Below, in pieces: positions 8,901 to 64,000 of a stretch of 64,000 bases of DNA. How positions within the stretch are numbered: position 1 is the first letter of the stretch; each line of letters begins with the position of its first letter. The translations under genes were made by a program, and so were the position numbers. The notes under the pieces were generated by a model that saw only the letters and a list, made by a program, of their open reading frames with translations, searched no databases and was not told the origin of the DNA. The DNA is from an uncultured bacterium (lineage in GTDB: Bacteria > Lernaellota > Lernaellaia > JACKCT01), in assembly GCA_964591275.1 (NCBI GenBank), contig CAZQAE010000023.1:6333-70332 (forward strand), read 5' to 3'.

Positions 8901-8923
8901 TTCGAACCCCGTCGCCCGCTAAA
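8901..8923 (+). repeat. Copy 1 of a perfect 23-bp direct repeat TTCGAACCCCGTCGCCCGCTAAA (tRNA T-loop-like GGTTCGAACCCC)
   Basis: There is an exact match to 12763-12785. An imperfect TTTTCTCATTT(T) motif also occurs in both regions: at 8968-8979 (about 45 nt downstream of copy 1) and at 12741-12750 (about 12 nt upstream of copy 2). Confidence 0.8.
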
Positions 8924-8964
8924 TGAAAGATGGTCCATAAGGCATTGTTTTTGCGGGCCTTTTC

Positions 8965-9339: not shown

Positions 9340-9403
9340 TTTGCTATTTCATGTTTTTAAGTTCACCATTCGTTGAGAATTTTCAAATTGACGGGGATAA
9401 TAA

Positions 9404-21200: not shown

Positions 21201-21563
21201 TAGGTTTGGTATGGCCTTAAAGCGCATCCATTGATTTTTGTCATGTCCTCTATAACGAGCCGGATCGACGCCCTTTCCTGTTTCCTTCAATTCCATGTAA
21301 CCCTGAAGCACTCCGTCGAGCAAAACCGCATAATCAGGAATGCCAAGCCTGTGTAGCTTTGATTCTCCTTTTGCAATTATCTCCTGAGAGGTCGCCTGGC
21401 CAACCTCTTTCAGAAATATTTCAAGGGGCGAACGCAGTTGGTCCTCCGGGTGACCGTCAACCAATGCAGACATTTTCTTATGCACCGTCTCTGCAAATGA
21501 CTGCAATGCCTTATACACTGCTGTTTCAAGCGGCGTCATTTTTTGAATTGTCATTTTGCACAC
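18243..21563 (-). CDS. Single-chain restriction-modification enzyme of MmeI-like Type IIL (or Type IIG) organisation, 1106 aa
   Basis: The N-terminal PD-(D/E)xK-like element is IPDYAVLL...YMELKETG. Gamma-class N6-methyltransferase motifs are VYYTPVEVV, DPAVGTGTYLLGVI and CLGNPPYDRH. The C-terminal approximately 450 aa fits a target-recognition domain. The G+C content is lower than in the surroundings. Confidence 0.65.
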   Translation of the reverse strand: MCKMTIQKMTPLETAVYKALQSFAETVHKKMSALVDGHPEDQLRSPLEIFLKEVGQATSQEIIAKGESKLHRLGIPDYAVLLDGVLQGYMELKETGKGVDPARYRGHDKNQWMRFKAIPNLIYCDGNDWVLYRNGERVGRAVRLSGDIASDGKKAIQKNDALALARLITDFITWNPIAPDEPEGLAALLAPLCRMLRDDVTDALTDNSSPLTAIANDWRQLLFPDASNARFADAYAQTVTFALLLAKSEGAAVTDIDDAVKKLYAKHTLLSKALEILTDPLAREEIPPSLKLLQRVVNAIPEKVMANGKKEDPWLYFYEDFLAVYDPKMRKDSGVYYTPVEVVRAQVRLVDELLRERFDKQTGFADNDVITLDPAVGTGTYLLGVIDHALDRVEDEEGKGAVPGRASILAKNLFGFEIMVGPYSVSELRVSRALIDRGASLPKDGLGVYLTDTLESPFAKPIQLTTILREISNQHRLALRVKEKVPVFVCLGNPPYDRHDAADNSDPHYKVRTGGWVRYGDENRPGEKPILKDFIEPAVKAGHGGDIKNLYNLYIYFWRWALWKVLEHMTSQGPGIVSFISASSYLEGDAFSGMREHMRRTCDEIWIIDLGGEGRGTRKGKNIFAIQTPVAICIALRNASEKKEEPATTRYVRIRGSKKDKLDALDSISGFKPLKWRKCPEEWQGNFKPNGTGKFFSWPLLTDLMPWQHSGVQMKRKWPIAPDEEILKHRWDSLLRADNRGIAFKESGDRKIDQSYCVRLTENNRTIPIAKEPRNASIPPLMDYSYRSFDNQKIIADGRLISRPRPAIWLCHSEKQLYFASVFTQPIGAGPALTVAAAPPDLHFFCGRGAKDVVPLYRDRDLKSPNINIGVLGLLTQHYDFARKIKPEDFSAYLYGVLAHPGYAKRFWDELGKQEIRVPLTKNRELFEKMKKIGRRLIWLHTYGERFSGQGRKKGAIPRGKIRCTKHVPNSPAKCPDDFGYNESTEVLRVGEGEFAPVRREVWEFKVSGLKVVQSWLANRMKTPRGRKSSPLDDIGPESWTPDFTTELLKLLAILDETVNTYSRQRKLLEEILAGPLFTEDELPPVLPEMRKSPKIDLEIQRSLNL

Positions 21564-24500: not shown

Positions 24501-27032
24501 CTATGGCGCCAGTTGATTCTCATACACTTCATATTGCCGGCACGGCTGGCCGCGAAGCGCATGGCATTCGGGCAGGGCCGTCGGCACGTCGATTCCGGGA
24601 ATGACCGGAAAAACGATACTGGACGGAAAGGCTTCGTGATGAGAAATGATATTTGTCGGCGGCGTATCGAAATCCAAAAGCAAAAACCGCCATCGGGCCA
24701 TGCTGTCTCCAGGAGTGTCCACGGTTAACCGAATGCGGGAACCGGCTCTGAAAATATGGAGTATAGGCATAAATTCCACTCGCACTTCGTTCCACTGCCC
24801 GGCCTCAAGTGGAATAATATCCTCCTCATAGTGGGAAGAAATGGGGCGAAGCTCGGTGCTTTCTTCGAACAAGGTCCTGTGGCTGGCGCGAAGCCACCCG
24901 CTTTGGACGTATGACTCAAAATCATCCGGCCTCACTTCGGAAAGATTCACCTCCAGGTCCGCATCGTTGGCCGTGGACTGAAACCAAAGATCTACGCTTG
25001 CAGATCCCACGAGAACTACATCTTCTTCAAGGGGCGCTGTTAAAAAACTCACCGCCTTGCCGGGCACGGGTTGGCGGTAGTCCCAATTTGGTTGGAGATG
25101 ATTTACGGAGCCGCTGGCCAGATTCACTCTCTCCCCGGCTTCCGGATCGTGTTCGAATTCACAGGCCCCTCCATCTGTAGGAGGCAAATCTTCAGAAAGA
25201 CTTCCATCGGGTTGAAAATATAATCTTGTGGGCACTGTCGACGGGATAGGCCATTCGGGAAATTTCACTTCAAATGTGCCCACCGGCGCTCCGGGTTCCA
25301 CATCGGGGTGGGCGCCGGATTCGAAAATCACCCGTACCTCGTCTTCGGCTTCGTAATCGGCTTTCGCCTGCTCAAAATTCGTATAGGAAGCAAATCGATC
25401 CGGCCCGAAATCCATACCCTGTGAGCTTTCAAAGACATCTTCCATGAAAATTGGCACCAATAATCTGACCAGAAGGGGGATTCGGGGGATTTCGCCGGTG
25501 AGGTAAAATGACTGAAAATTGTGCCACTCCGTCAGGTTCTGCGGCGAATACCCGTCCATATGCACGCCGTTTGTTACGGTGAACCGAGTAACTGGAGCGC
25601 TTGTGAATTTATCGAACAGGGCTGGGGAATGGGGTCCGGTTTGTTCATCCTGCATCTGTCCTGCCATAAATACGGGAACGTTAATATTTTGAACAAACTT
25701 GCTGGGGTCCAGCGGCGCCGCTACCTCATCAGTGTAAAATGGATTTTCCAGCGCTTTTTCAATGGCATCCAGCAGTTGGCTGTGTAGAAGCTGATTTTCC
25801 TCGCAAATCGTGTCCCCGGCATCAACCAGTTCGGTTATCCAATCGTGAGCGTAGGGTTCTGCCTTGTTTAGAACCATTTCGATCCAGTCAAAGGCAAAGC
25901 CGTTGTTGTATATGCCTCCGGGAACCAGCGTGGAGGACACGGTGTCGGCAATGACTGAAAAAGGCGATATGGAAGCCAGGCTCGGCGGATTGATGGAGGC
26001 CACGAAAAGTTGCGTTATGCCGGGGTAAGACAAGCCCACCATAGCCACCTTGTGGTCAAAAACCCATTCCTGCGCTGCGATGGTTTCAATAACATCGTAT
26101 CCGTCAAGAAGCTGCAGCATCTCAAAATAATCGTAAGCCCCGCCGCTGCAACCAGTTCCGCGAATATTGACGCCCACTGTTGCGTAGCCGAGCACGTTGC
26201 CGATTATTCCGTAGGGGTGGTCGGGCGCATTGCAGAGCACTGGATACAGCCAGCAGAAGTTCTCGGCATCGCCGCCCACGCTTTGTCCGGGTCTTGAAGG
26301 CGTATATCCGGACAGATTTAACAAAGTTGGGTATGGCCCATCCTCCACTGGCCCGGGAAGCGAAACGAAAATCGAAAGCTGCGTGCCGTCGCGTGTAGTC
26401 AGGTAGCCGTAGCCGATATCCAAAACCTGACGATCGTAGAATGTTTGACGGGGTAGGCTTTCCTCCACTGACATGACGGTGAGTCGGTCAGTGTAATCTT
26501 CGTGATCTTCGGCAAGGCGAACAACATACCCCGCACCAGGTTCAAGTTCCCGAACGACCAGACTGCCCTGGTAATCGGTGGGTGATGAAAACACCACAGC
26601 GCCGCTCGGATCGACAATTTCAATCTCGGTGTCCGGCTCGCCGTTCCAGATATGAAGTTGCTCAACGCTTTTCCTGACTGAAAAGCTGCCTGAGACATGG
26701 GGAAATTTATCGATGCTGACGTCGTAATCATCGTCGATGTCATCATCGACATCGTCGTCCACGTCATCATCGACATCGTCGTCCGTATCATCATCGACAT
26801 CGTCGTCCGTATCATCATCGACATCATCGTCCGTATCATCGTCGACATCATCGTCCGTATCATCATCGGGCAATGGAGCGTTGTCGTCATCGTCAATGTC
26901 ATCGTCCGAGCCTCCGCCTGAATCGGAATCATCATTGTCATCGTCGTCACCGCATCCGGTCGACGTCAAAAGCAAGGCAAGCATGATCAGTATGAGGAGA
27001 ACTACGCTTTTCATCTGCATTTTCCATTTCAT
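24501..27032 (-). CDS. Secreted CocE/NonD (X-Pro dipeptidyl-peptidase, S15)-family alpha/beta hydrolase with lipoprotein polyAsp N-terminal linker
   Basis: The start at 27032 (MKWKMQMKS...LLTSTGCGDDDDNDDSD) is preferred over the track start 27101. The nucleophile elbow is VGLSYPG, with upstream NIRGTGCSGG. Confidence 0.65.
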   Translation of the reverse strand: MKWKMQMKSVVLLILIMLALLLTSTGCGDDDDNDDSDSGGGSDDDIDDDDNAPLPDDDTDDDVDDDTDDDVDDDTDDDVDDDTDDDVDDDVDDDVDDDIDDDYDVSIDKFPHVSGSFSVRKSVEQLHIWNGEPDTEIEIVDPSGAVVFSSPTDYQGSLVVRELEPGAGYVVRLAEDHEDYTDRLTVMSVEESLPRQTFYDRQVLDIGYGYLTTRDGTQLSIFVSLPGPVEDGPYPTLLNLSGYTPSRPGQSVGGDAENFCWLYPVLCNAPDHPYGIIGNVLGYATVGVNIRGTGCSGGAYDYFEMLQLLDGYDVIETIAAQEWVFDHKVAMVGLSYPGITQLFVASINPPSLASISPFSVIADTVSSTLVPGGIYNNGFAFDWIEMVLNKAEPYAHDWITELVDAGDTICEENQLLHSQLLDAIEKALENPFYTDEVAAPLDPSKFVQNINVPVFMAGQMQDEQTGPHSPALFDKFTSAPVTRFTVTNGVHMDGYSPQNLTEWHNFQSFYLTGEIPRIPLLVRLLVPIFMEDVFESSQGMDFGPDRFASYTNFEQAKADYEAEDEVRVIFESGAHPDVEPGAPVGTFEVKFPEWPIPSTVPTRLYFQPDGSLSEDLPPTDGGACEFEHDPEAGERVNLASGSVNHLQPNWDYRQPVPGKAVSFLTAPLEEDVVLVGSASVDLWFQSTANDADLEVNLSEVRPDDFESYVQSGWLRASHRTLFEESTELRPISSHYEEDIIPLEAGQWNEVRVEFMPILHIFRAGSRIRLTVDTPGDSMARWRFLLLDFDTPPTNIISHHEAFPSSIVFPVIPGIDVPTALPECHALRGQPCRQYEVYENQLAP
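26737..26880. repeat. Tandem 24-bp coding repeats (DDDTDDDV)n within the hydrolase gene
   Basis: The unit catcgtcgtccgtatcatcatcga is reiterated about six times. Confidence 0.8.
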
Positions 27033-27360
27033 ATTGTAAATTTGACTCCCTTGGCTATCTTTTTTAGGAAAAAGGGCAAAGCCCGTCCAGGCGGATTGCA
27101 AAAAAACTCTTCGGGAAGCTTTTTAAACTTTGAAAAGCATAAAGTAAAAAACAGTGGAATGCCATACGGTACGATTTCTCTAAAAAATGCGAATCGAAAA
27201 AGATCGCCTGCGATAATTCGAACAACCACTTGAGCCTCGCCCTTTTATAAAAAAACTTCGCGCCGGTTCAGATGACATGAGTCGCGGCTCAGAACCACGT
27301 GGGCTTGCTTTATGGTGATGACCAAATCATCATGCAATCTGAAAAACTCGGAGGCCAACA

Positions 27361-35572: not shown

Positions 35573-36991
35573 ATGAGAAGTCCGACCTTAATAATTTCAA
35601 TTTCTGTTTTCATGATTTTTGTCGGCGCATTCGGCGCGGATATTTCCTCGGCATCGCCTTCGGTGAAAGGTGAATTCCAGATCATCGACGGCATTCGCGT
35701 GCTGCATGTGTGGGGCTCACATTACGAAATGGGCTACGCACACGGCTATTTGCTGGCCGATGATATTGTTGAGTTGTTTGACAAAATTTTAGTGCCATTA
35801 ATCGGCAACGCCGAAGGCATGGAAGAAAACCGAGTGCTCTTTCGCGACCGCTACGCCATGCCCGCGTGGCACATGGAAGAAACCCAGGGGATTATCGACG
35901 GTATCGCCGCATCAAGCGCCGGCCTTTTCGTACCGGTTTTGGGCCGGGATCTGGACGCGGATGATTTGGGGACAATGGATTCATTGTCCGACATACGCAC
36001 GGTGTACGAATGCTCATCGTTCGCCGCATGGATTGAATCTACAACATCGGATGCCGTGTTGCTTGGCGAATCGGCGCTTGCGCGCAATCTCGACTGGTTT
36101 GCGCCCTTTGGTCGTCCATACATGCTGGCGAAAAATACTCTTGTCATAGGTCGTGAACCGGATGACGCCCGCGCTACATTGACGGTCAGTTTTTCCGGAT
36201 TAACGGGTTGTTATTCGTGCATGAACGAAGCCGGCGTCGCCACGACGCGAATGATGTCCAATCACGGCACGCCGGGATGGCAGATGGATTTTTCCCGTCC
36301 CTTTACTCCCCTCAACATTGTCATGCGCGACGCTCTGCAGGCGCAAGACGTGGACGGAGACGGCGCCTCAACGGTGGCCGACCTGGCATTAGCGCTTTCG
36401 GAGTCGGTGCGTTCTTCGGCATACAACATCATGATCGTCGGTCCAACCAGCGCCGGACACGAACCGGTTGTCGCCGAAATCAACCACAAAGAGTTCGCTT
36501 TGCGTAGCGGTGCGGATAATACGGAACTGCCATCCAGCGTTCTGGCTTCGGTCAATAATATGCGCAAGTTGTACCCGCCGTATCCCGATGGTCGCTACAA
36601 CGCCATGAAGCGCGATGTCCTGGGCTGGAACGGCGAGATTACTTTGTCGCGGATGTGGGAGGTCCTACAGAGTATGAGCGACCAGTGGATGGCGACGCAG
36701 GCCATGATCTTCGTACCTTTCAACCGTAGTCTGGCCATTTCGTATACGGATGCCGAAGGACTGGCGCCCTTCAAATCACCCGTCTGGCTCGCGTGGGATG
36801 ATGTATTTGACCTTGGAGGCGATGACGACGACGTGGATGACGATGTTGATGATGACGACTCGGACGACGACGATTGGTTGCCCGATGACGATTCAGATGA
36901 CGATGACGCCAATGATGATGACAGCGAAGCAATGGATAATTCCATTGAAACCGACGAGGGGGATTCCGCAGGCAGAGGCTGCGGGTGTTAG
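35573..36991 (+). CDS. Secreted Ntn-hydrolase (peptidase C45 / acyl-CoA:6-APA acyltransferase-like) with C-terminal polyAsp tail ending GCGC
   Basis: It has a signal peptide. A putative autoproteolytic Cys lies in YECSSFAAW. The C-terminus is ...DDDDVDDDVDDDDSDDDDWLPDDDSDDDDANDDD...DSAGRGCGC*. Confidence 0.5.
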   Translation: MRSPTLIISISVFMIFVGAFGADISSASPSVKGEFQIIDGIRVLHVWGSHYEMGYAHGYLLADDIVELFDKILVPLIGNAEGMEENRVLFRDRYAMPAWHMEETQGIIDGIAASSAGLFVPVLGRDLDADDLGTMDSLSDIRTVYECSSFAAWIESTTSDAVLLGESALARNLDWFAPFGRPYMLAKNTLVIGREPDDARATLTVSFSGLTGCYSCMNEAGVATTRMMSNHGTPGWQMDFSRPFTPLNIVMRDALQAQDVDGDGASTVADLALALSESVRSSAYNIMIVGPTSAGHEPVVAEINHKEFALRSGADNTELPSSVLASVNNMRKLYPPYPDGRYNAMKRDVLGWNGEITLSRMWEVLQSMSDQWMATQAMIFVPFNRSLAISYTDAEGLAPFKSPVWLAWDDVFDLGGDDDDVDDDVDDDDSDDDDWLPDDDSDDDDANDDDSEAMDNSIETDEGDSAGRGCGC

Positions 36992-38258: not shown

Positions 38259-39018
38259 TTATTTTTGCGAATAATATTCTTCGCTTCCTTCCTTGAAGGT
38301 GGGCTGGCTTCCGGTCCGCGCCATCATCCGGCGAAGGCCCGGCGTCCGGGTGGTGTCTACAACGTCCAGTTCCTCGTCTCCGGGGTAGCGTGTTTCCCCG
38401 CAGGAAGGACAAACGAACATCGAACGCGAATATGACACAGGGCCGAGGATCGACAACAAGGGCTTGCTTTGAAGTCCCTGGCTTCCCATTCGGCGGCCGC
38501 AGGAGCAGAGCACCGGCTCGGTCCGCCTGCCCGAACCGATTTTTCTCAGCAGGTCCGACAGCATTTTGGCGCCGGCTGTATGGACGGCGGCGCGTATGGC
38601 GCTCTCCCACGCCTCCAGGTCGGCGTTTCCCGCCTTCGACGGCTTTTCGAGAATGCGCTTTACTTCTTTGTCTTGCTCAATGGCGACCTGCGCCGTTTTT
38701 TTTCGACGGGTTCTTTAGAGCTTCACATAAGGCCTCTCCAATTTCCCGCAATTCCTTTGTCAATTTCTCAAAACGCCTGAAGTTGTCGATCTGCTGTTGA
38801 TATTTGGCGACTTCCTTCAGGCTCTTGAGCCTTTTGGAGACGGTCTTTCCTCCTTCCTTGAAAGTGTAGAGGGGGTAAGGCCCGCGCCGCACCATCTCGC
38901 CTTCCTTGTTTTTGCCCTCCCTATACTGCTGGACAATACTTCCCCGTCTCATGCGATCCAGATTCGCTAATTCGGACAGGATGTCTTTGCGCCTTGCCGT
39001 GAGATCTTTTGAAGCCAT
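38259..39018 (-). pseudogene. Transposase remnant: an N-terminal DUF6788-like segment plus a downstream CxxC...CxxC segment, frameshifted and truncated to about 250 codons
   Basis: The N-terminal segment RRGSIVQQYREGKNKEGEMVRRGPYPLYTFKEGGKTVSKRLK matches the pattern RGS...GPY..L....GKT.S that precedes several IS transposases. A second frame (38259-38564) carries a zinc-ribbon. Confidence 0.4.
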
Positions 39019-39203: not shown

Positions 39204-40067
39204 TTGATGCAAAAATTTTGTTTGATTTCAGTTTTATCAATCTTATTGCTGCTCGTAGCAGCGCAAATCCTTAACGCCAGGGAATCGGCGGAACTCGTCG
39301 TTAATACATGGAGTGACGATTGCTGTGCAAGTTGCGATGCATTACCGGGTTTCAACAACATGGTCGGACATTGGTTCAATGAAGTACGAGATGGCTCACA
39401 TGGATCAAGAGCCTTTGATGATTACTCCAAATGGCGAATCGACGGACATTTCACTCAAGATCTTTTGACTGATGGCACATATGAACAATACGCGGCGGAT
39501 TCGTCCTGGATAGACTATGTCGATGTGGCAATTGTAGCATTGCATGGCACAAGAAGAAATTCTAATCATCATTGGGGTGCAAGGGTTAGAAGTCAAAACA
39601 TCAATGATGAGTGCATTGCTGACCCAGATGAAATGGAAGTTGGGGACTATAACAATGAAAACTTAGTCCTTGTTTCATGTTATTCTGTAAATAAAAACTA
39701 CTTCTCACATTGGAGTGAATGGAAACAAATGTTCGGAGGGATGCAAGCGCTTAATGGTTTTCATGGCAAGGCCTGGTTGGCGGATTGGTTGCACGACGAT
39801 TATGAAAACTTCGCTGATGATGGTTTCGATGTGCCTTTAAAAACGGCCTTTATGGATAACCTCTATGAGTCGAATGCGTTCAACGATGGTGGAACCATTG
39901 TTGATCAATGTCCGGTAACTGTTTCGGCAGGTTCATCTTCGACGGAAGCACGCAGCTACAGAGATAATTACTATTACTATACATGGGGCTCAGACCCATC
40001 AGGGAATTCAAATTGGGCAAGATGGGGCGTTATAGGTTGCGATCCCGGCGGCGAAGGCGCATACTAA
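39204..40067 (+). CDS. Secreted Cys-containing protein (287 aa) with a possible His-Gly ... Ser-Cys dyad arrangement reminiscent of clan-CD peptidases
   Basis: It has a signal peptide. Candidate dyad residues are VAIVALHG and NLVLVSCYS. The region is AT-rich. Confidence 0.3.
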   Translation: MMQKFCLISVLSILLLLVAAQILNARESAELVVNTWSDDCCASCDALPGFNNMVGHWFNEVRDGSHGSRAFDDYSKWRIDGHFTQDLLTDGTYEQYAADSSWIDYVDVAIVALHGTRRNSNHHWGARVRSQNINDECIADPDEMEVGDYNNENLVLVSCYSVNKNYFSHWSEWKQMFGGMQALNGFHGKAWLADWLHDDYENFADDGFDVPLKTAFMDNLYESNAFNDGGTIVDQCPVTVSAGSSSTEARSYRDNYYYYTWGSDPSGNSNWARWGVIGCDPGGEGAY

Positions 40068-40080
40068 TAAATGAAAGGAC

Positions 40081-41010
40081 ATGGTCATGAAAAGGCAACA
40101 TTTAATCAGTTTTGTTCTCATTGCGCTCATCCTTCTTGTGCAAACCATCCAAGTCAGGGCCGACGAGGAGGACAATACATCGGAAAAATACTTCGGAGGT
40201 AAAAGAGTACTGGATTACAATGCAATTCTCGATGAAATATCTCAAAAGGAACAGAAAATCGATGAAACGATTACCCAGAGTATGAGAAAATGCGAATCCT
40301 CTGTCGCCTCGTTTTCCAATGAGGATATTTCCGAATGGTATGAAGCGGGGAAAGCATTTACACGATCCACTTTCCGTAATGGAAAAAAACTTCGAGATGA
40401 AAACGAAGATTTAATCATTAAAAGAAAGCTAGGATATTTGAGAATAATTGAGAAAAGAGGCATCGAGGAATCGAGAAACATCGCTTCGAGGTCCAATAAA
40501 ACTTTAGACATCAGCAAAGAGGATGCGTTGGAAAGCGCTCTTGTATTTTCAGACTACATCGGAATTGAAAGAGATCAGATATGGGATGTCGATATTAAGG
40601 TTGTCGCCGGAGAAAGCGGAGGAGAAAACGGCGTTGTTGAGGAAAAAGTGGAAGCGGAGTATCTTGTGACAATATATCGCTCGATAAACAACACACCCGT
40701 TGCCGACAGCCGCGTACGTTTGGCGATCAGCGATAGTGGGATTGTAACAAGAGTGCTTGCTCAATGGCCGATTCTTGAGGCTCAACCGGTTACTAAGCAG
40801 AAAGTGGATATTTCCCGGGTGGCGCTGAAAGTTTACGATCAATTGGACGCCATATACTATAAGAATCCGAAGGTAAGCTATGGCCTTTACCCCGTCATTG
40901 TCCATCAGGAAGACGGCGATGTCATTCGCGCCATGCCCGCTTTGCGCGTCATGGTGGTTCGTTCCGAGCAGGGACCTGTTATAGGATTCGATATTAACTT
41001 GGTGGAATAA
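40081..41010 (+). CDS. Secreted hypothetical protein (309 aa)
   Basis: It has a signal peptide ISFVLIALILLVQTIQVRA and lies in the same AT-rich block, 13 nt after the previous gene. Confidence 0.45.
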   Translation: MVMKRQHLISFVLIALILLVQTIQVRADEEDNTSEKYFGGKRVLDYNAILDEISQKEQKIDETITQSMRKCESSVASFSNEDISEWYEAGKAFTRSTFRNGKKLRDENEDLIIKRKLGYLRIIEKRGIEESRNIASRSNKTLDISKEDALESALVFSDYIGIERDQIWDVDIKVVAGESGGENGVVEEKVEAEYLVTIYRSINNTPVADSRVRLAISDSGIVTRVLAQWPILEAQPVTKQKVDISRVALKVYDQLDAIYYKNPKVSYGLYPVIVHQEDGDVIRAMPALRVMVVRSEQGPVIGFDINLVE

Positions 41011-41037
41011 ATCCCCTAACGGGAAGGAGAAAAGGAA

Positions 41038-41478
41038 ATGAGGAATTTTAAGATATTCAACAGGCTGCCCTTCGCGTTGCTGCTTGTCATTCTCGTGGCA
41101 TTACCCATTGCGCTGATGGCCTTATCCTGCGGCGATGATGATGACGATGATGATTCGGATGACTCTCAAACCCAGACATGTCAACATAGCTATGAAGATG
41201 CATGCGAGTTCATTACCGATATCCAAGCTCCGAATGATTCGGATTTGAATTGTGTTGATGCTTTTGAATTCGGATTTGAAACGGTGAAGGAATGCCATGA
41301 AAACATTATCGAACCTCTCCTTGATTCCGAGAATCCCTGTGAAGTATTGGCCGGTGAATGCTTAAATACGATGAGTGAGATTGACGAAGAATGTAGTGAA
41401 GTGACGCCGACCAGTTGCGAAAACGCCTGGGAAATATGGAGCGAATGTCTGGTGATCGCCGAGCAAGAGGATTGCTGA
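41038..41478 (+). CDS. Small Cys-rich acidic lipoprotein with polyAsp linker
   Basis: The lipobox is LMALSC followed by GDDDDDDDSDDS, and the mature part has 12 cysteines. Confidence 0.5.
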   Translation: MRNFKIFNRLPFALLLVILVALPIALMALSCGDDDDDDDSDDSQTQTCQHSYEDACEFITDIQAPNDSDLNCVDAFEFGFETVKECHENIIEPLLDSENPCEVLAGECLNTMSEIDEECSEVTPTSCENAWEIWSECLVIAEQEDC

Positions 41479-42267: not shown

Positions 42268-42563
42268 TGGTCGGGGGTCTCATCAGTTCAACAATACTGA
42301 TCTTAATCATACTTCCGGCAGTTTATTTGCTTTATAAAAAGGGAGATGAACCGACGCTTTTTCAGTCAAACGAAAAAAGAAAGCAGCAAGCCTTCAAAAA
42401 GGCTTTTGAAAACGAATAAACACGATAGAAATGCGGGGGAATAAAAATGACGGACTTAAAAAATGAACTTGATGCGGAAAAAGAATGGCGAAAATATGCT
42501 GATTATGGGTACCGATCCGAGCAAATAGGAAAAGCCAACAGATCGAAAAAGAGGTCAAATACC

Positions 42564-42863
42564 ATGAAAGACTTGTTCATACTTCTCATCGCGACTGTTT
42601 TTGTGCTCGCCATCGCCTCGGTCAGTTTCGCCTGCGACGAAAATTCCGATGTCTCGGCAAAGGCGGATACGACGACGGCGGCGCCGAAAGTGTTCGACAA
42701 GGCACAGACCGTCGGGACGCAAGTCACCTGCCCTGTCATGGGCACTGTCTTTGCCATTGAAAAAGACACGATTCACAAAGAGTACAAAGGCAAGCACGTG
42801 TATTTGTGCTGCCAGGGATGCATTGAAAAGTTCAAGGCCGATCCGGGAAAGTATACAAAATAA
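42564..42863 (+). CDS. YHS-domain lipoprotein (putative Cu/metal binding)
   Basis: The lipobox is SVSFAC. The YHS/TRASH-like motif is TCPVMGTVFAI...HVYLCCQGCIEKFKADPGKY. The start at 42564 is preferred over the track ORF 42447. Confidence 0.65.
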   Translation: MKDLFILLIATVFVLAIASVSFACDENSDVSAKADTTTAAPKVFDKAQTVGTQVTCPVMGTVFAIEKDTIHKEYKGKHVYLCCQGCIEKFKADPGKYTK

Positions 42864-43169: not shown

Positions 43170-44534
43170 ATGAGAAAAGGAGAATGCAAAGTGAAAAATG
43201 CGTCGATTATCATTCTATTTGTCGTCATCTTTGCGGCATCAGCCCAGATGACTCCATCCTACGCCCTGGACATCGCCGAACTCCAAAAATCGATTGACGA
43301 AAAAGGCGCCGAGTGGACAGCCGGCGAAACAAAGTTTTCGCACCTAAGCGCCGAAGGGTTCGCGCAAATGCTTAACTATCCGCTGGAAACCCCCGTTTTG
43401 CCGGAAGGAAAGATTCTCCACGAGTGGAACGGCGAAGTTAAAGATGATCCCCCCGATCAGCTCGACTGGAGGGATTATAACGGCAAGAACTTCCTGACCT
43501 CGATCAAGGACCAGCATCCCTGCGGTTCGTGCGCCACCTTCAGCACCGTCGGCTGCCTGGAATCCCACATCAAGATCGTCATGGACAATGAATTCATCGA
43601 GCCGAATCTGGCTGAGCAGCTTGTATGGTCTTGCTCAGGCGGGATAATGCCGCCAGCCACTTTTTTTCATACTCTGGGATGGCTGCAAAGCGAGGGAACC
43701 GCGGATGAGGCTTGTTTTCCCTACGATGCCGAGGAGCAATGCGCCGACAGTTCCCTGGGCCGCGTCGATTGCGCGGAGCGTTGCGAGGATTGGGAAAACC
43801 GGACATACGGCATTGATGAATATCAATTTTTTATGTTCCAGCAGCCGGAAACCTTTATCCAACCTCTGCAAAGCGGCCCCATCGTCGCGGGCTTCATGGT
43901 CTTCGAGGATTTCCAGGACTACACCGAAGGCGTTTACGATCACACCACGGGAGCGATGCTGGGAGGCCACGCCGTGCTTATCGTAGGATACGACGCGCAG
44001 GAAGAGTACTGGATCTGCAAGAACAGTTGGGGAGCCGACTGGGGTGAAAACGGCTACTTCCGCGTTCGCTGGGGCGACGGCCTGCTCGACTTCGGCTACC
44101 AGGCCGCACACATGGACGTCAGCTTTGAAAGTGTTTGCGGCGGCAATGAAGCGCCCGCCATCAGCGATCTGGTCGTTTCCGGCAAAGCCGAAGGCGAATC
44201 CGAGATTCTCTTCAATTATGAGGATTTGGACGCCAATCTGGCCGGCGCCGAACTCTTTTATTCCATTGATGGCGGCGACTTTGTCCGTTTCGACTCCCCG
44301 ACCACGCAGCTCGTTGGCCTAAGCGGCGAAGCGTCATTTATCATTGCGGATGAATTTTCCTCCATCCAGGTTTACGTCAAGGACATCTGCGGCGTTGAAA
44401 GTAATCAACTCAATGTCGGCGAGCAAGTCGATGATGATGACGATGACACAGCCGATGACGACGCGGCTGACGATGACGAAGCCGACGGCGACGACGATGA
44501 CGACGATGATGACGACAGCGGATGCGGCTGTTAA
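43170..44534 (+). CDS. Secreted papain-family (C1A) cysteine peptidase with C-terminal beta-rich domain and polyAsp tail ending GCGC
   Basis: The active-site Cys box is DQHPCGSCATFS. The His region is GGHAVLIVGYD, and the Asn/Trp region is NSWGADWGENGY. The C-terminus is ...DDDDDTADDDAADDDEADGDDDDDDDDDSGCGC*. Confidence 0.8.
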   Translation: MRKGECKVKNASIIILFVVIFAASAQMTPSYALDIAELQKSIDEKGAEWTAGETKFSHLSAEGFAQMLNYPLETPVLPEGKILHEWNGEVKDDPPDQLDWRDYNGKNFLTSIKDQHPCGSCATFSTVGCLESHIKIVMDNEFIEPNLAEQLVWSCSGGIMPPATFFHTLGWLQSEGTADEACFPYDAEEQCADSSLGRVDCAERCEDWENRTYGIDEYQFFMFQQPETFIQPLQSGPIVAGFMVFEDFQDYTEGVYDHTTGAMLGGHAVLIVGYDAQEEYWICKNSWGADWGENGYFRVRWGDGLLDFGYQAAHMDVSFESVCGGNEAPAISDLVVSGKAEGESEILFNYEDLDANLAGAELFYSIDGGDFVRFDSPTTQLVGLSGEASFIIADEFSSIQVYVKDICGVESNQLNVGEQVDDDDDDTADDDAADDDEADGDDDDDDDDDSGCGC

Positions 44535-44560: not shown

Positions 44561-44595
44561 GGGCGGGCCTTAAAAGGGCGCCGCCCTTTTTCTTT
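44561..44595 (+). terminator. Rho-independent terminator after the papain-like gene
   Basis: A GC-rich hairpin GGGCGGGCC...GGGCGCCGCCC is followed by TTTTTCTTT. Confidence 0.6.
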
Positions 44596-44638
44596 ATGAA
44601 AACTGACTCATCCGAACAAGCCTCAATATTGCATTGCG

Positions 44639-46063: not shown

Positions 46064-46531
46064 GCGGCGATCCCTCCGTCCTGGTTCATCGTCCTGCCTG
46101 AAATTGTTCACGCCCAGAAAGCCGTGTGCGATGTACAGCGGCTCAGGGTTTAATGAGAACCGATTCAATCGACCTTGTCCCGCTTTTTGGACTTCCTCTG
46201 TATTCACGGACCGCGACTGCGTGGGGTGCCTCTCTTCCATTGTGGGTCTAGTTTACTACCAACCTCTCAAATCTCTCCTCTCTTCGCGCTACGTCCGTTT
46301 TCCGCTCCACCCATCATAGCAACATATAGAAGGTCAAAAAGCGAACCGGGGCTTTATTATTATCCGAAGCAATCAAGAAAATGCGTCGGTGAACCCTTCC
46401 ATAAATCGAATAGGCGACAACGGCTCCGGGCGGTGTAGCCCAAGCAATCAACGGAGCGGCGGCTTCCCTTCCAAAACCGAGCGGCCTATAGTGGCGACAG
46501 CTTAAGAAAATCAAAAACAAGGATCGGGATT

Positions 46532-47173
46532 ATGAATATCTGGAAAAGCGCCATTCTTATCGCCCTGGTTTTGAGCTTGGTCTTGGCCGTAGCTTGTGGC
46601 GACGACGACGATGATAACCAGGGTTCCCCTTACCTTGACGACGATGCGGATGATGACGCCGACGATGATGATTTTTATGACCCCGCCTTTTCGTGTTCCG
46701 GCGAAGTCTGCACGGACCCGGCGGTGGGGTTGATGTGGCAAAATGAAGACACGGACAGGAAAACAGGTTGGAATGAATCCATTGATTATTGCCACGATCT
46801 TGACATGGGTGATGGCTTCGGCGGGTTTCACGGCTGGCGGCTGCCGACGATATCGGAGCTTCGCAGCTTGATCCGGGGATGCCCCGAAACGGTAACGGGC
46901 GGCGAATGCGCCGTTGCGGACGATTGCCTTTCATGGGGCGAATGCTGGGATGATTCGTGCCGTAGTTGTGAAGTGTTTGGCGGGCCTGGTTTGGAGGGGC
47001 GATACTGGCCCGAAGGCATGGAGGGCACGACAACCTTCCATTGGTCCGCGTCGGAAACCGATTATCCAGAAGATGAAAATGCGTGGCATGTTGTATTTGC
47101 CAATGGGTCAATAAGTAGGTCTGGAAAATCAGGTGCTATTGATTGCGGCACCCGCTGCGTTCGTGACCTCTAA
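46532..47173 (+). CDS. DUF1566 (Lcl C-terminal domain) lipoprotein, paralogue 1
   Basis: The lipobox LAVACG is followed by DDDDD. The DUF1566 core is GWRLPTISELRSLIRGCPE...RCVR. Confidence 0.75.
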   Translation: MNIWKSAILIALVLSLVLAVACGDDDDDNQGSPYLDDDADDDADDDDFYDPAFSCSGEVCTDPAVGLMWQNEDTDRKTGWNESIDYCHDLDMGDGFGGFHGWRLPTISELRSLIRGCPETVTGGECAVADDCLSWGECWDDSCRSCEVFGGPGLEGRYWPEGMEGTTTFHWSASETDYPEDENAWHVVFANGSISRSGKSGAIDCGTRCVRDL

Positions 47174-47202
47174 ATGACCGGCGTGGACAACGAAGGGGGA
47201 AA

Positions 47203-47841
47203 ATGAAGACTTGGAAAAGCGCCTTTCTTATCGCCCTGGTTTTGAGCTTGGTCTTGGCCGTAGCCTGCGGCGATGATGACGATGACCGTGGCTCACCCTA
47301 CCTTGACGACGACGCGGATGATGACGCCGACGATGACGATTTCTACCACCCCGCCTTTTCATGTTCCGGCGAAGTCTGCACGGACCCGGCGGTGGGGTTG
47401 ATGTGGCAAAATGAAGACACAACTTCATACACTAGGTGGGAAAGCTCCATTGATTATTGCGAAAGCCTTGACGCCGGGGATGGCTTCGGCGGGTTTCACG
47501 GGTGGCGACTGCCGACGATATCGGAACTTCGCAGCTTGATCCGAGGTTGCCCCGAAACGGTAACGGGCGGGAAATGCAACGTGACGGATGATTGCCTTTC
47601 GTGCGGCGAATGTTGGGGTGATTTGTGTTGGAATTGCGAACAGTTTGGCGGACCCGGCCCCGAAGGGCGCTACTGGCCGGAAGGTATGGAGGGCACGACC
47701 TATTGTTATTGGTCATCGTCGGAGCGTACGGATTCGGAATCAGCGAGTGCGTGGTATGCCAATTTTGCTATTGGATCAATAGACAGGATGGACACTTCCG
47801 GCTCTCAAGGCTTCGGCACGCGCTGCGTTCGTGGCCTCTAG
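47203..47841 (+). CDS. DUF1566 lipoprotein, paralogue 2 (about 85% identical at the 5' end to paralogue 1)
   Basis: The signal peptide, polyAsp linker and DUF1566 core are nearly identical to paralogue 1. The upstream region GGCGTGGACAACGAAGGGG-AAAATG is also conserved. Confidence 0.75.
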   Translation: MKTWKSAFLIALVLSLVLAVACGDDDDDRGSPYLDDDADDDADDDDFYHPAFSCSGEVCTDPAVGLMWQNEDTTSYTRWESSIDYCESLDAGDGFGGFHGWRLPTISELRSLIRGCPETVTGGKCNVTDDCLSCGECWGDLCWNCEQFGGPGPEGRYWPEGMEGTTYCYWSSSERTDSESASAWYANFAIGSIDRMDTSGSQGFGTRCVRGL

Positions 47842-47870
47842 GCAACCGGCGTGGACAACGAAGGGGAAAA

Positions 47871-49049
47871 ATGAAGACTTGGAAAAACGCCTTTCTTATT
47901 GCTCTGATTTTGAGCTTGGTCTTGGCCGTAGCCTGCGGCGACGATGATGATGATGATGACAGAGGCGGCGATGCTTATGTGCCGTCGGACGATGATGACG
48001 GTGGAAATGACGATCTCAATGATAACCAGGATGATGATGCAGACGATGACACAGACGATGATGACGAGCCAACGTGGACTGATCCAGATACCGGCCTTAT
48101 GTGGCTAAATCCGGGCCTCGCAGGCGTAGGGAGACTTTGGAATCAAACTTGGGAAGGGGCAAAACAAGCTTGTAATAATCTTACTTATGCCGGTTACAAC
48201 GATTGGTGGTTACCAACAATATCTGAATTGAGAACACTGGTACGTGGATGCCCGGATACAGAGACGGGCGGCAACTGCGAAATCACCGATGAATGTGGAA
48301 ACGATTGTGGCTCCCTTTGGTGTCGTACTTGTGACGAAAGTGACGCTCCTTTTGTAGGTTGTTTTTGGCCACATGGAATTGCAAACCTTGATATTGAGTT
48401 GAGCCTCTCTACTTGCGATGCTCATTGGTCTTCTACGCCAGTGTATGGTGATTACAGTTTAGCATATTATCTAAATTTCAGAGATGCATCTGTGGATTAT
48501 ATTTCAAAAACAAGGGAATATGCCACTCGTTGCGTTCGTAATGCCGACTCGGATGACGATTTGGATGATGACTCGGATGATGACTCGGATGACGATGGCC
48601 CCTGGACGGACCCTTCTTCAGGCTTGACTTGGCAAAACCCACATGATGAGCTTCTGCTTCCTCAAAATGGAGCGCATGATTACTGTTGGAGCTTGAGTCT
48701 TTTAGGCCAGGACGACTGGCGTCTACCTACGATCAGCGAACTGCGGTCACTAATCCGCGGCTGCGACCAAACCGAACTGGACGGCTCCTGCGGTGTAACG
48801 GATGCATGCTTGAGTCTGAGTGATTGTTGGAGCTATTCGTGCGATGGCTGTTACTATCTGAGCGGTCCTGGATCAGGTGGAGCTTATTGGCCTGATAGCA
48901 TATCAGGTAATATCGATTGGCATTGGTCAATTTCGCCGAATCCAGATGGCATTTTTGTTGGCCTTGGTTGGATCATCAATTTCACTGACGGTTCCGTTCA
49001 CAGTAATCGTGACGACAACGGCAGCTATGTTCGCTGCGTCCGTCCTTAG
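47871..49049 (+). CDS. DUF1566 lipoprotein, paralogue 3, with two tandem DUF1566 domains (392 aa)
   Basis: It has the same signal and lipobox. Domain 1 is WWLPTISELRTLVRGCPD...RCVRN and domain 2 is DWRLPTISELRSLIRGCDQ...RCVRP. The track ORF (47625) is over-extended. Confidence 0.75.
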   Translation: MKTWKNAFLIALILSLVLAVACGDDDDDDDRGGDAYVPSDDDDGGNDDLNDNQDDDADDDTDDDDEPTWTDPDTGLMWLNPGLAGVGRLWNQTWEGAKQACNNLTYAGYNDWWLPTISELRTLVRGCPDTETGGNCEITDECGNDCGSLWCRTCDESDAPFVGCFWPHGIANLDIELSLSTCDAHWSSTPVYGDYSLAYYLNFRDASVDYISKTREYATRCVRNADSDDDLDDDSDDDSDDDGPWTDPSSGLTWQNPHDELLLPQNGAHDYCWSLSLLGQDDWRLPTISELRSLIRGCDQTELDGSCGVTDACLSLSDCWSYSCDGCYYLSGPGSGGAYWPDSISGNIDWHWSISPNPDGIFVGLGWIINFTDGSVHSNRDDNGSYVRCVRP

Positions 49050-62036: not shown

Positions 62037-63641
62037 CTAGTGGCTCGATTTCATCTCGACAAGAAAAGACGGATTTTCCGATGCATCGCAGCGTAGCCCC
62101 GCAAGCTGCCCGAAAAGCCGTTCGCCGTTCGCAGCCAGCGTGGCGCATGCGCCGGTTAGTACAAGATTGATCGGCCGGAAAGTCGGCGAGGTCCAGAGCG
62201 TCGCTGGCGCGGATGCGGTTTCCGCGACGACAACTACATTGCTCACAGTCGGCCCAACCACGTGCACTTCGTATCCCATCTGATCGCCGCTGACTTTGAG
62301 TTCTATAGTCGCGCCGCTTTCCCCGCTCGCCAGGGCAAACAGGTTCGCGGCGGCAGGCTCTTGCCAATTGGCCAGCAACGTGGATCCGGGCGTCGTCACA
62401 CCCATGGAATCGACGGTCCCGCCGCCAATCCCCTGCGCCGCCACGCGAAAAATCACCGCAGGGGCATCCGTCATGCCGAGCGCTTCATCGAAGGAAAGAT
62501 CAAGAGATACGATCCTTTCACTCTCCGCGCCAAAAGCTCCGACAAAAACCGGCGGCCCCAGGCGATTGGGCTGACCGTCCACTGTTTCCACGTACCCCGC
62601 CGGCGCGTAGCCCCGCGCGTTTTCATCCATAAAGACATAGGCAGGTTTGTGCTCCGAGCCCACCATCTCCATGTTCAGCGCGCAGTTTGAAACGCCTGAC
62701 CGGAAGCCGTCGAAGAGATCGTAGTTGCCGTTAAAGATCCGCCCCGATGTATAGATCCGCGTCAGCCGCTGCGCCATGCGATTGGCCGTGTGCGCGGCAA
62801 TATCGTCCAACGCTTCTTCGCCGTCGTTAGTGAAATGCCCATCGCCTCCGAGCTGAAAAAAGGAAGGCGTCTGTGAAAATACCGAGCTTCCCGTTTCAAG
62901 AGCCAGCTTTCCCCGCATTTCAGCGATCGAGGGATAGCCCAGGACCTGCGCCAGTTCTATTAGAGGCAGCGCTGCAATTTCAAGCCTCGTCGCTTCATCC
63001 AATGCCGCAGTCATCTCCCGCACCCAGTCGGCAAGGGAGAAAAGTGGGCCTGCATCCGAAACCGGCGACGGTCCGACAAGAAACTCGTCGATAAGGGCGT
63101 TGAACTCATTCATAGTCGCCTCGTCGCTTCCGACGCCCCATTGAAAACCCACGACGATCATCTCGTGGTCCGCGTGCGTGTCGGACCACCAGCGAAGGTT
63201 CCGCAACATGCTCGAAAGCCGAACACTTTGCGTCGTTTCCGAATGGTTCACCCAGAAATCGCCGTCCTCGGTTTTGCTTGTCACATCGATTTCCAGAAAG
63301 AGCTGCCCCAGGTTTAGAGCGCGGATCAGGCCGAGGCTGGCAACCAGCGTGGTCGGTCCTCCCGGAGGACCGCGCCAGATGAAAGTGTTGTGGGAGGCAG
63401 CCATGTGCCAGGCGTTGATCGGCAAAGACGGACGCACGAACAGCGGCGCATATGAATCGTCGTCGCCCGTGTCGTCATCGTCGGCGTCGTCATCGGCATC
63501 ATCGTCGCCCGTATCGTCATCGGCATCATCGCCGTCGGTGTCGTCATCGTCAGCGCCATTATCATCATCGTCATCGCCAACGCAGCCGGGAAAGCCAACA
63601 GTCAAAAGCATTGCAACAAGCAGGAAAATCCAGCTCTTCAT
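62037..63641 (-). CDS. Secreted lipoprotein with long polyAsp linker and a TIM-barrel phosphodiesterase-like (PI-PLC X-like?) domain
   Basis: The start at 63641 (MKSWIFLLVAMLLTVGFPGCVGDDDDDNGADDDD...) is preferred, as the track ORF is over-extended. The segment AWHMAASHNTF is weakly PLC-X-like. Confidence 0.4.
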   Translation of the reverse strand: MKSWIFLLVAMLLTVGFPGCVGDDDDDNGADDDDTDGDDADDDTGDDDADDDADDDDTGDDDSYAPLFVRPSLPINAWHMAASHNTFIWRGPPGGPTTLVASLGLIRALNLGQLFLEIDVTSKTEDGDFWVNHSETTQSVRLSSMLRNLRWWSDTHADHEMIVVGFQWGVGSDEATMNEFNALIDEFLVGPSPVSDAGPLFSLADWVREMTAALDEATRLEIAALPLIELAQVLGYPSIAEMRGKLALETGSSVFSQTPSFFQLGGDGHFTNDGEEALDDIAAHTANRMAQRLTRIYTSGRIFNGNYDLFDGFRSGVSNCALNMEMVGSEHKPAYVFMDENARGYAPAGYVETVDGQPNRLGPPVFVGAFGAESERIVSLDLSFDEALGMTDAPAVIFRVAAQGIGGGTVDSMGVTTPGSTLLANWQEPAAANLFALASGESGATIELKVSGDQMGYEVHVVGPTVSNVVVVAETASAPATLWTSPTFRPINLVLTGACATLAANGERLFGQLAGLRCDASENPSFLVEMKSSH

Positions 63642-63997
63642 TTGGCGCCTCCATCTATCCGCCAAATGTAGACGTAGTAGCTCCTGATTCCCGGGTTGAG
63701 ATGATGAACCGTTTCCAAGGCGCCCGAAATCACCATTCCATCGCTCAGGATTTTGGAAAAATTCCCTTCCTGCGTGACATCTATGGAAGCAAGGACGCCC
63801 GGCGCCGATCCGATTTGAAAGGTAGCGGCATTGTCGCTGTGGCAAAATGGGTGTTCGCCGGACGCCGCGCTGATCGTTTCCGAACCGTCGCACTGGCCGA
63901 TCATCACCTGTCCGGGCGCTGCAACATTGACCAGGAAAACCATCCCCGGCTGGTCGGCCCTCGCGCTGCTTGCAATGACCAGTCCCACGCATAACAA
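63638..63997 (-). CDS. Small secreted protein (119 aa) whose stop overlaps the downstream lipoprotein start as ATGA
   Basis: The signal peptide is MLCVGLVIASSARA. The gene start is 3 nt from the window end. Confidence 0.4.
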   Translation of the reverse strand: MLCVGLVIASSARADQPGMVFLVNVAAPGQVMIGQCDGSETISAASGEHPFCHSDNAATFQIGSAPGVLASIDVTQEGNFSKILSDGMVISGALETVHHLNPGIRSYYVYIWRIDGGAK

Positions 63998-64000
63998 AAT

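Follow-up and report, generated by a model that had tools for sequence, protein, structure and literature searches.

Results

Two Exported Hydrolases Share a C-Terminal Tail

The stretch of DNA analysed here, called the window below, comprises 64,000 nucleotides of contig CAZQAE010000023.1 (positions 6,333 to 70,332; assembly GCA_964591275.1; at ENA, contig k141_891046 of ERZ27317826) from an uncultured bacterium of the Lernaellota. It encodes two exported proteins that end in the same kind of short tail, in which an acidic, largely poly-aspartate spacer is followed by Gly-Cys-Gly-Cys (GCGC) at the extreme C-terminus (Table 1). One is a papain-family (C1) cysteine peptidase and the other a C45-like N-terminal-nucleophile (Ntn) hydrolase; both use a cysteine nucleophile, and their folds are unrelated. 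A preliminary description of this DNA had drawn attention to the two endings, and the open reading frames (ORFs), their true stop codons and the lack of a transmembrane segment were all confirmed from the sequence. The C1 peptidase ends DDDDDDDDDSGCGC, also written ...VDDDDDDTADDDAADDDEADGDDDDDDDDDSGCGC, that is ...D9-S-GCGC-TAA, and the C45-like protein ends DEGDSAGRGCGC, also written ...DDDSEAMDNSIETDEGDSAGRGCGC, that is ...GRGCGC-TAG. These are the only two of the 480 stop-to-stop ORFs of at least 60 amino acids in the window to end in GCGC, and the DNA pattern GGNTGYGGNTGYTRR occurs twice there against 0.04 occurrences expected from shuffles.

Table 1. Features of the two tail-bearing genes and the Cys-Gly-polyAsp lipoproteins of the window.
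Feature	Position	Strand	Remarks
Exported papain-family (C1) cysteine peptidase gene	43191-44534	+	447 aa; GTG start as in database protein P0001
Alternative upstream starts of the C1 gene	TTG 43122; ATG 43170	+	
Sec-type (signal peptidase I) signal peptide, C1	43191-43265	+	MKNASIIILFVVIFAASAQMTPSYA, then LD; hydrophobicity heuristic, cleavage site inferred
C1 catalytic domain	43452-44075	+	CGSC active-site Cys, GGHAV His, KNSWG Asn; Pfam, residues 111-318 (470-aa numbering)
C-terminal beta-sandwich domain, between catalytic domain and tail	44148-44420	+	AlphaFold strands E323-E410, pLDDT >90
Poly-aspartate spacer, C1	44430-44519	+	D6-TA-D3-AA-D3-EADG-D9-S, 30 aa; from sequence, predicted disordered
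Gly-Cys-Gly-Cys core of the tag and TAA stop, C1	44520-44534	+	Codons GGATGCGGCTGT 44520-44531; TAA 44532-44534
Terminator-like hairpin (44572-44590) and T-run 3' of the C1 stop	44572-44600	+	
Exported C45-like Ntn cysteine hydrolase gene	35573-36991	+	472 aa; second copy of the tag
Signal peptide, C45-like	about 35573-35638	+	
Predicted nucleophile Cys147, C45-like	36011-36013	+	
Acidic spacer, C45-like	36821-36976	+	DDDDVDDDVDDDDSDDDDWLPDDDSDDDDANDDDSEAMDNSIETDEGDSAGR, 52 aa; predicted disordered
Gly-Cys-Gly-Cys and TAG stop, C45-like	36977-36991	+	Codons GGCTGCGGGTGT 36977-36988; TAG 36989-36991
Lipoprotein	41038-41478	+	...LMALS-C-G-DDDDDDD
Other Cys-Gly-polyAsp lipoproteins	9404-12445; 24501-27101; 46532-47173; 47167-47841; 47625-49049; 62037-63998	+; -; +; +; +; -	

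The C1 peptidase is 100% identical to P0001 and belongs to its family by a strong match to Pfam PF00112 (E 1.7e-41, 143 bits, cut-off 20.7); in the Pfam scan the catalytic domain alone was matched and the tail was not. In an alignment of 35 orthologues with 33-75% identity (alignment A3), the N-terminal signal-peptide pattern is kept, and the catalytic residues show no change at C111 and hardly any at H260 and N278. The AlphaFold model (predicted local distance difference test score, pLDDT, 87; predicted template-modelling score 0.84) is laid out as signal peptide, pro-region, C1 domain, beta-sandwich and disordered tail, with pLDDT falling to 48-63 over residues 411-447. The gene directly upstream (42447-42863, +) encodes a membrane-anchored YHS-domain protein, a metal-binding type.

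The C45-like protein scored below the cut-off of NCBIfam NF040521 (C45; E 2.7e-21, 76.2 bits, cut-off 85), and a sequence search of the PDB gave no matches; its identity was settled by structure prediction and a fold search. The best Foldseek match of the AlphaFold model (pLDDT 87.5) was 2x1c, the Penicillium isopenicillin-N acyltransferase (IAT) that is the founder of C45 (E 2.8e-16, target template-modelling score 0.71), followed by N-acylethanolamine acid amidase (NAAA) and then acid ceramidase. As modelled, the protein has the Ntn alpha-beta-beta-alpha fold with a conserved nucleophile cysteine, the predicted Cys147, which is invariant among 38 homologues (alignment A4). Residues 420-472, the tail region, have pLDDT values of 44-57.

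The Tail Recurs on Exported Proteins of One Lineage

We scanned one genome per species, from 185,579 species, for the pattern GAYGAYGAYNNNGGNTGYGGNTGYTRR (D3-x-GCGC-stop), which gave at least 120 matches. Among the matches listed, about 108 are long ORFs of nine metagenome-assembled genomes (MAGs) of FEN-1099/Lernaellota type (DAIMDW, DAIPLW, DAINPV, CAZEDX, CAXXWT, CAYSHR, CAZPJD, JAOSJX 'FR-FEN-1099-1' and JACKCT 'HK-STAS-FEN-2'). About 12 others listed come from unrelated taxa and were judged to be chance matches, being ORFs of 10-46 amino acids, a 169-amino-acid ORF from Solwaraspora and a longer, unrelated-looking one (L044). Homologues in Ca. Alcyoniella australis and Ca. Lernaella stagnicola, of the phylum Ca. 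Lernaellota (= FEN-1099), also carry the tail. In sampled loci of related genomes (pieces of 8-21 kb, about 855 kb in total), 131 ORFs end in an Asp-rich stretch with a terminal cysteine, at least 32 of them in one MAG. All carrier genomes are MAGs, and assemblies that are independent of one another show the identical ending, some of them on contigs as long as 1.1-1.5 Mb. The preliminary description had left to be checked whether other proteins have the same terminus, and related genomes evidently hold many.

Nearly all close homologues of both window proteins end in poly-Asp followed by GCGC, GCGG/A/L/K/M, CCG, GGC or similar, with no hydrophobic segment, and GCGC is the commonest ending. When the unbiased homologue sets were pooled, 80 of 82 Asp-rich tails had a cysteine within the last seven residues; of the two that did not, one is from a protein on a 2.2-kb contig and the other is labelled partial. 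The last cysteine is followed by no residue in 36 of the 80 tails, by one in 19, two in 22, three in 1 and four in 2. Fifty tails have two cysteines and 30 have one, with glycine before the first cysteine in 61 and after it in 62. Spacers range from 12 to 223 residues, with a median of about 50, and Asp makes up 59% of the 40 residues preceding the motif. In general form, the tail begins with an acidic spacer, for the most part poly-Asp, and goes on to x(0-3)-Gly-Cys-Gly-[Cys/x], the last cysteine having no more than four residues behind it.

The first cysteine of the tail (C445) is an invariant column among the 35 C1 orthologues, as is the catalytic cysteine, and the Asp spacer before it is highly variable in length, with many indels. 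Moreover, 115 tails use 39 distinct 12-mers to encode GCGC. Because the cysteine stays invariant despite the spacer indels, and because GCGC is written in so many codon combinations, we conclude that selection acts on the protein. We are confident that the C-terminal tag that the preliminary description had proposed is real, recurrent across the lineage and selected, and that it is related to the MYXO-CTERM signal discussed below.

A Sec-type signal peptide was called in 80 of the 95 carriers with complete 5' ends, compared with about one third of background ORFs under the same heuristic. Nearly all of these are of the signal peptidase I type, as in both window proteins, and a lipobox-like N-terminus (L-x-[GAS]-C) was found in only 3 of the 95, which sets the carriers apart from lipoproteins. 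Pfam families numbering 51 were matched by 81 carriers, and 106 carriers fell into 41 BLAST clusters. The families include M14, S8 and C1 peptidases and purple acid phosphatases, and also propellers of the Kelch, BNR and FG-GAP kinds and proteins with PKD domains. The earlier suggestion that the tail marks a class of exo-hydrolases was thus too narrow; given this range of families and the Sec signals, the tag marks exported proteins of a lineage.

The Tails Are Genuine Protein Ends

Two trivial sources of the shared ending had been raised at the outset, namely a duplicated 3' DNA segment and artefactual stop codons that truncate longer sorting signals, and neither applies. The 3' ends of the two window genes align through their GAY repeats only; their GCGC codons differ and their flanks are unrelated. 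This GAY-only similarity, together with the 39 codon combinations, rules out a 3' DNA duplication. No transmembrane segment lies 3' of either window stop in any frame. Among the 131 related tails, all three stop codons are in use (TGA 85, TAA 29, TAG 17). Hydrophobic segments follow the stop in frame 0 in 8 of 130 related tails, against 36 of 658 control ORFs, and in any frame in 25 of 130, against 124 of 658. Since there is no downstream excess over controls, the idea of a truncated, read-through or frameshifted sorting signal can be set aside, as the three stop codons and the hairpin 3' of the C1 gene also indicate; that terminator-like hairpin with its T-run supports the C1 gene end as genuine.

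A Probable Short Variant of the MYXO-CTERM Signal

The known signal most like the tail is MYXO-CTERM. As revised by Haft (TIGR03901), it is tripartite, consisting of a signature, a transmembrane helix and an Arg cluster, and the signature has an invariant cysteine, a frequent second cysteine and what Haft calls a 'GCGC motif'. It is known from Myxococcota and Bradymonadales, and is processed by myxosortases of the CPBP family (CaaX proteases and bacteriocin-processing proteins), after presumed lipidation of the cysteine by an unknown enzyme (Haft). Between 3 and 73 carriers per genome have been reported. For one carrier, TraA, MrtX-dependent cleavage and surface anchoring have been demonstrated experimentally, and the signal is proposed to be lipidated on its cysteine and then cleaved by the myxosortase (PMC11980579).

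The tail resembles MYXO-CTERM (TIGR03901/TIGR03382; myxosortases MrtX, MrtC and MrtP) in several respects. It occupies the last 4-8 residues of proteins with signal peptides, it is Gly-rich with an invariant cysteine and frequently a second one, and it is found on dozens of unrelated proteins per genome (at least 32 in one MAG; 51 Pfam families overall). It differs in that a stop codon follows 0-4 residues past the cysteine, where a transmembrane helix would be, in that the C-terminal Arg cluster is absent from all short tails, in that the window tails do not reach the cut-off of the TIGR03901.2 hidden Markov model (HMM; 20 bits), and in that its carriers are MAGs of FEN-1099/Lernaellota type, a different phylum-level lineage. 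On account of these four differences, we set the tail apart as a variant of MYXO-CTERM rather than a member. A myxosortase that cleaves a transmembrane helix is not logically required for the short tail.

The resemblance to the GCGC opening of MYXO-CTERM, which the preliminary description had remarked on, turned out to go beyond the 'GCGC motif' itself, as some homologues of the C45-like protein have a full MYXO-CTERM at the aligned position. Three of them, P0142, P0143 and P0170, from contigs of about 70% G+C, end in an Asp-rich linker and GC(G/Q/A)C followed by a transmembrane segment and Arg: DDDDDDDDTPGGCQC, transmembrane segment and RRP in P0142; GCAC and transmembrane segment in P0143; and DDDDSADDGSGGCGC, transmembrane segment and RRRARR in P0170. 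In alignment A4, their Cys motif shares its columns with the short GCGC endings. P0170 passes both MYXO-CTERM models, with 22.2 bits on TIGR03901.2 (cut-off 20) and 16.9 on TIGR03382 (cut-off 15.85), and P0142 scores 16.8 bits. More distant homologues of the C45-like protein have neither spacer nor cysteine.

Related signals with a transmembrane segment were also seen in other contigs. An 833-kb contig of 56% G+C (L127; JGI 3300083231 Ga0675942_0000034) carries six tandem paralogues of about 230-290 amino acids at 4798-9877, each ending in an acidic, mostly poly-Asp stretch, C-x-C, a transmembrane segment and a basic C-terminal cluster. The 'choice-of-anchor J' model is matched by two of them, in one case with a score that exceeds the model's cut-off, and the paralogue at 4798-5676 scores 24.6 bits on the MYXO-CTERM model, above the cut-off of 20. 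This suggests that MYXO-CTERM-type signals occur outside the reported range of Myxococcota and Bradymonadales. A BLAST search of these paralogues against the sampled FEN-1099 ORFs gave no matches.

On a FEN-1099-type contig (L126), a stretch of 21 kb encodes a Cys-polyAsp lipoprotein, three proteins with short tails and a PslG-like hydrolase that ends in GGGCGG, a transmembrane segment and RRKK, so that short and transmembrane Cys signals coexist in one genome. The PslG-like glycosidase family (P0309-P0334; L081 753-1922, -; L126 10001-11104) consistently ends in NPT[DE]PGGxGGCG, a transmembrane segment and RRKK, has weak GH39/GH10-type Pfam matches and does not match the MYXO-CTERM model; its ending may be a distinct, dedicated Cys-type sorting signal. 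The L081 gene, which has the one tripartite Cys signal of the FEN-1099 loci sampled, was considered as a possible swap between short tail and transmembrane tail inside a group of orthologues and was rejected, as its family always carries its own transmembrane-type signal.

Lipoproteins with Mirror-Image N-Termini

Lipoproteins whose mature N-terminus reads Cys-Gly-(Gly)-polyAsp occur both in the related genomes and in the window (Table 1), with junctions such as LSCGDDDDDDD and VACGDDDDD. In this lineage poly-Asp thus adjoins the anchoring cysteine at the N-terminus and the invariant cysteine at the C-terminus. The N-terminal and the C-terminal arrangement hardly ever occur together: of 38 lipobox ORFs in related genomes, 21 show Cys-(Gly)-polyAsp, and a single one of these 21 has the C-terminal tail as well. 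That sole double case, a 167-amino-acid ORF (L080 5466-5969, -), combines a lipobox-Cys-Gly-polyAsp start with an Asp-rich Cys tail at its C-terminus.

The signal by which lipoproteins of Bacteroidota are exported to the cell surface is a short run of acidic residues directly behind the lipidated cysteine (PMC5080379), and the Cys-polyAsp N-termini resemble an exaggerated form of this lipoprotein export signal (LES). The tail, too, has acidic residues beside its cysteine, and in Bacteroidota such residues beside the anchoring cysteine act in surface export; the LES is 2-4 residues long, in contrast to a tail spacer of about 50. The polyAsp-Gly-Cys of the tail mirrors the Cys-Gly-polyAsp of the lineage's own lipoproteins, the products of the bacterial lipoprotein pathway (lipobox, Lgt/LspA). 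The tail cysteine, however, is at the opposite terminus and has no hydrophobic h-region presenting it to Lgt.

Three of the window's lipoproteins are partly overlapping tandem paralogues (46439-49049, +) with near-identical signal peptides and poly-Asp linkers, which looks like a recent local duplication. The two that were scanned (46532-47173 and 47625-49049) have Lcl_C domains.

Other Genes in the Window

Between the two tail genes lie a DUF6788 ORF and an adjoining Zn-ribbon-like fragment (38259-39018, -), which may be the remnant of a mobile element, and a small group of genes for secreted proteins (39204-41478, +): one with DUF6345, one without annotation and a lipoprotein that is Cys-rich and has poly-Asp. 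Elsewhere in the window, a defence-like cluster (1301-8129, -) encodes a DUF1156 methyltransferase-like protein of 949 amino acids, a small ORF and a 1172-amino-acid SNF2/ResIII helicase with a NOV_C domain, and a Type ISP restriction-modification enzyme (Type_ISP_C, E 1.5e-70) is encoded at 18243-21563 (-).

Discussion

On balance, we lean towards the view that the tail is a lineage-wide C-terminal sorting or anchoring tag, a variant of the Cys-type MYXO-CTERM signal that has no transmembrane helix and tethers or sorts exported proteins through a modified cysteine. Under this proposal, the proteins would be exported by Sec and lose their N-terminal signal peptide to signal peptidase I, and the invariant C-terminal cysteine would then be covalently modified in the envelope, most likely by a lipid as predicted for MYXO-CTERM. 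Intramembrane cleavage would be unnecessary; at most the 1-4 residues past the cysteine would be trimmed, as in CaaX processing. The protein would end up tethered to the envelope or cell surface, with the disordered poly-Asp stretch as a charged spacer that could possibly also act as a surface-export determinant, like the acidic export signal of Bacteroidota lipoproteins. A lipid anchor on the cysteine as the specific mechanism is a more tentative suggestion, one that we find attractive and would stop a little short of calling probable. If the cysteine is indeed modified, tethering to the surface or envelope probably follows from it.

Several points weigh against this proposal. Covalent modification of the cysteine, although we think it probable, is an extrapolation, with the lipid suggested by analogy with the MYXO-CTERM model and by the mirror-image lipoproteins, and in MYXO-CTERM itself the lipidation is a prediction and the modifying enzyme unknown (PMC11980579). 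Without a transmembrane segment, nothing obvious brings the cysteine to a membrane-embedded transferase, and anionic membranes should repel the poly-Asp stretch. No CTERM model of NCBIfam matched the whole window proteins at E <= 1, or the isolated tails at E <= 10. The signal peptides were called by a simple hydrophobicity heuristic, not by SignalP, and the restriction to FEN-1099/Lernaellota holds among the matches listed, which does not prove that the tail is exclusive to that lineage.

The search for a modifying or processing enzyme also counts against it. When 590 ORFs of the tail loci were clustered all against all, no family of non-tail genes recurred beside the tail genes, beyond syntenic orthologues. 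Within the window there is no candidate protease or acyltransferase. A motif search for CPBP-like proteins found none in the sampled loci, but these are about 855 kb of genome pieces, and the result says nothing about whether a myxosortase (CPBP core domain NF040914) accompanies the tail. A combined pattern and transmembrane search for CPBP-like or Lgt-like proteins returned only a YhfC protease, a rhomboid and unrelated transporters, which were judged coincidental. The genes of housekeeping sorting enzymes, myxosortase among them, lie apart from those of the substrates (Haft), and the absence of an enzyme gene beside the tail genes matches that behaviour.

The YhfC and rhomboid genes are the only intramembrane protease genes that were seen near tail genes, where their presence is probably coincidence or shared synteny. 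The first encodes a YhfC-family intramembrane metalloprotease and is convergent to a tail gene (L108 5652-6440, -). The second encodes a rhomboid of 208 amino acids and, in each of three related MAGs, has an orthologous tail gene nearby (L041 1405-2031, -; L020 1325-1951, -; L068 717-1343, -); the L041 copy was identified by a Pfam match, and the other two were assigned by BLAST clustering.

We found no description of the tail in NCBIfam release 20, in Pfam or in the searchable literature on poly-Asp linkers, C-terminal cysteines, CXC motifs and bacterial C-terminal lipidation, and the description of Lernaellota does not mention it (PMC9324843). Among the known systems other than MYXO-CTERM, the signals JDVT-CTERM and Synerg-CTERM, together with CGP-CTERM, share an invariant cysteine in a short C-terminal signature. 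They are tripartite signals whose cysteine is presumed to be modified before or with processing by CPBP proteases (Haft); all of them have a transmembrane helix, however, and a Cys motif standing bare at the C-terminus is described for none. GlyGly-CTERM with rhombosortase and PEP-CTERM with exosortase are likewise lineage-specific C-terminal tags on many surface-associated exoproteins, but they need a transmembrane helix and an intramembrane protease that cleaves them, and an invariant cysteine is absent. The preliminary description had also compared the ending with the CXC of prenylated Rab-type proteins, a likeness that proved weak. In CaaX and Rab CC/CXC prenylation (Rce1, Icmt) the cysteine is likewise within four residues of the end, with no transmembrane segment, endings resembling CXC, CC, CCX and CCXX are all present among the tails, and the myxosortases belong to the Rce1 family (CPBP) (Haft). 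However, the prenylated substrates are cytosolic and the tail carriers Sec-exported, glycines rather than aliphatic residues flank the cysteine, and one cysteine is enough, as in 30 of 80 tails.

A bolder version of the anchoring proposal would be a C-terminal mirror image of the lipoprotein pathway, in which an envelope enzyme lipidates the free ...Gly-Cys-Gly-(Cys)-COOH end of soluble, Sec-exported proteins. We regard this as possible, though more doubtful than the lipid anchor in general.

Of the explanations that dispense with anchoring through MYXO-CTERM-like chemistry, the one that fares best is an export or release signal, in which the part of MYXO-CTERM recognised by an outer-membrane translocation machinery (in MYXO-CTERM, the type II secretion system) would have been kept and the proteins, having neither transmembrane segment nor lipid, set free, with poly-Asp serving solubility. 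The tails have no hydrophobic element, many carriers are degradative exoenzymes (M14, S8, C1, C45 and phosphatase families), and without type II secretion MYXO-CTERM proteins do not arrive at the surface (Haft; PMC11980579). In M. xanthus, however, the cysteine is needed for cleavage and surface anchoring and is not known to be needed for recognition (PMC11980579); the Cys-Gly-polyAsp lipoprotein N-termini argue that poly-Asp sits beside an anchor point, and many carriers are non-enzymatic propeller and PKD proteins typical of surface display. We consider release unlikely.

Slightly less likely again is that the tail works by thiol chemistry, in which a disulfide or thioether would join the cysteine to a partner (for instance S-layer, polysaccharide or a protein of the envelope), or the CXC would serve as a redox-active pair. 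An invariant cysteine at a flexible extreme C-terminus that is exposed and disordered in the AlphaFold models would suit such a role, as would the two cysteines of 50 of 80 tails. Yet a redox pair cannot be required, because 30 of the 80 tails have a single cysteine, and disulfides are unfavourable in the anoxic zones from which the described, fermentative Lernaellota hosts come (PMC9324843). Moreover, no conserved partner gene lies near the tail genes, and the homology to MYXO-CTERM points to the MYXO-CTERM pathway instead.

Binding of cations, metals or minerals is, in our judgement, the next in line and also improbable. Here poly-Asp would bind Ca2+, Mg2+ or minerals and the thiolates soft metals, so that the proteins adsorb to particles or, through cation bridges, to lipopolysaccharide. 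Polycarboxylates are strong binders of calcium minerals, and a spacer of about 50 residues that is 59% Asp over the 40 residues before the motif would fit. This explanation leaves the strict terminal Gly-Cys-Gly and its alignment with MYXO-CTERM signatures unaccounted for, however; poly-Asp also follows the lipidated cysteine of lipoproteins, where there is no free thiol, and it is the cysteine that is invariant and the spacer length that is unconstrained. Finally, that the tail is a non-functional remnant or artefact (a decayed MYXO-CTERM, low-complexity drift or assembly truncation) is effectively refuted: low-complexity GAY repeats do expand easily and all the genomes are MAGs, but the cysteine is present in 80 of 82 homologue tails and invariant in 35 orthologues, GCGC is written in 39 codon combinations, three stop codons are in use and terminators follow, and independent assemblies, large contigs included, have the same ending.

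The bacterial and archaeal C-terminal sorting signals described in Haft's preprint and in the myxosortase paper (PMC11980579) are all tripartite, with a signature motif, a transmembrane helix and a basic cluster, and a Cys-only tag on dozens of exported proteins challenges the need of that helix for recognition. The lineage offers a natural experiment, since the step that modifies the cysteine should be shared with MYXO-CTERM lineages and transmembrane cleavage is not required for the short tails. The contrast between short and transmembrane tails could therefore separate the two steps of MYXO-CTERM processing, and make the modifying enzyme findable by comparative genomics. If the mirror-image pathway is true, it would represent the periplasmic counterpart of CaaX/CXC lipidation, with neither a transmembrane segment nor intramembrane cleavage, displaying dozens of proteins on poly-Asp tethers; modification would then be uncoupled from myxosortase cleavage, and a comparison of short-tail with transmembrane-tail lineages would identify the Cys-modifying enzyme of MYXO-CTERM. 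MYXO-CTERM-type signals would also extend beyond Myxococcota and Bradymonadales. For FEN-1099/Lernaellota themselves, annotation would improve, including which exoenzymes are likely to be cell-bound, and an extreme use of poly-Asp tethers at both protein termini would be documented.

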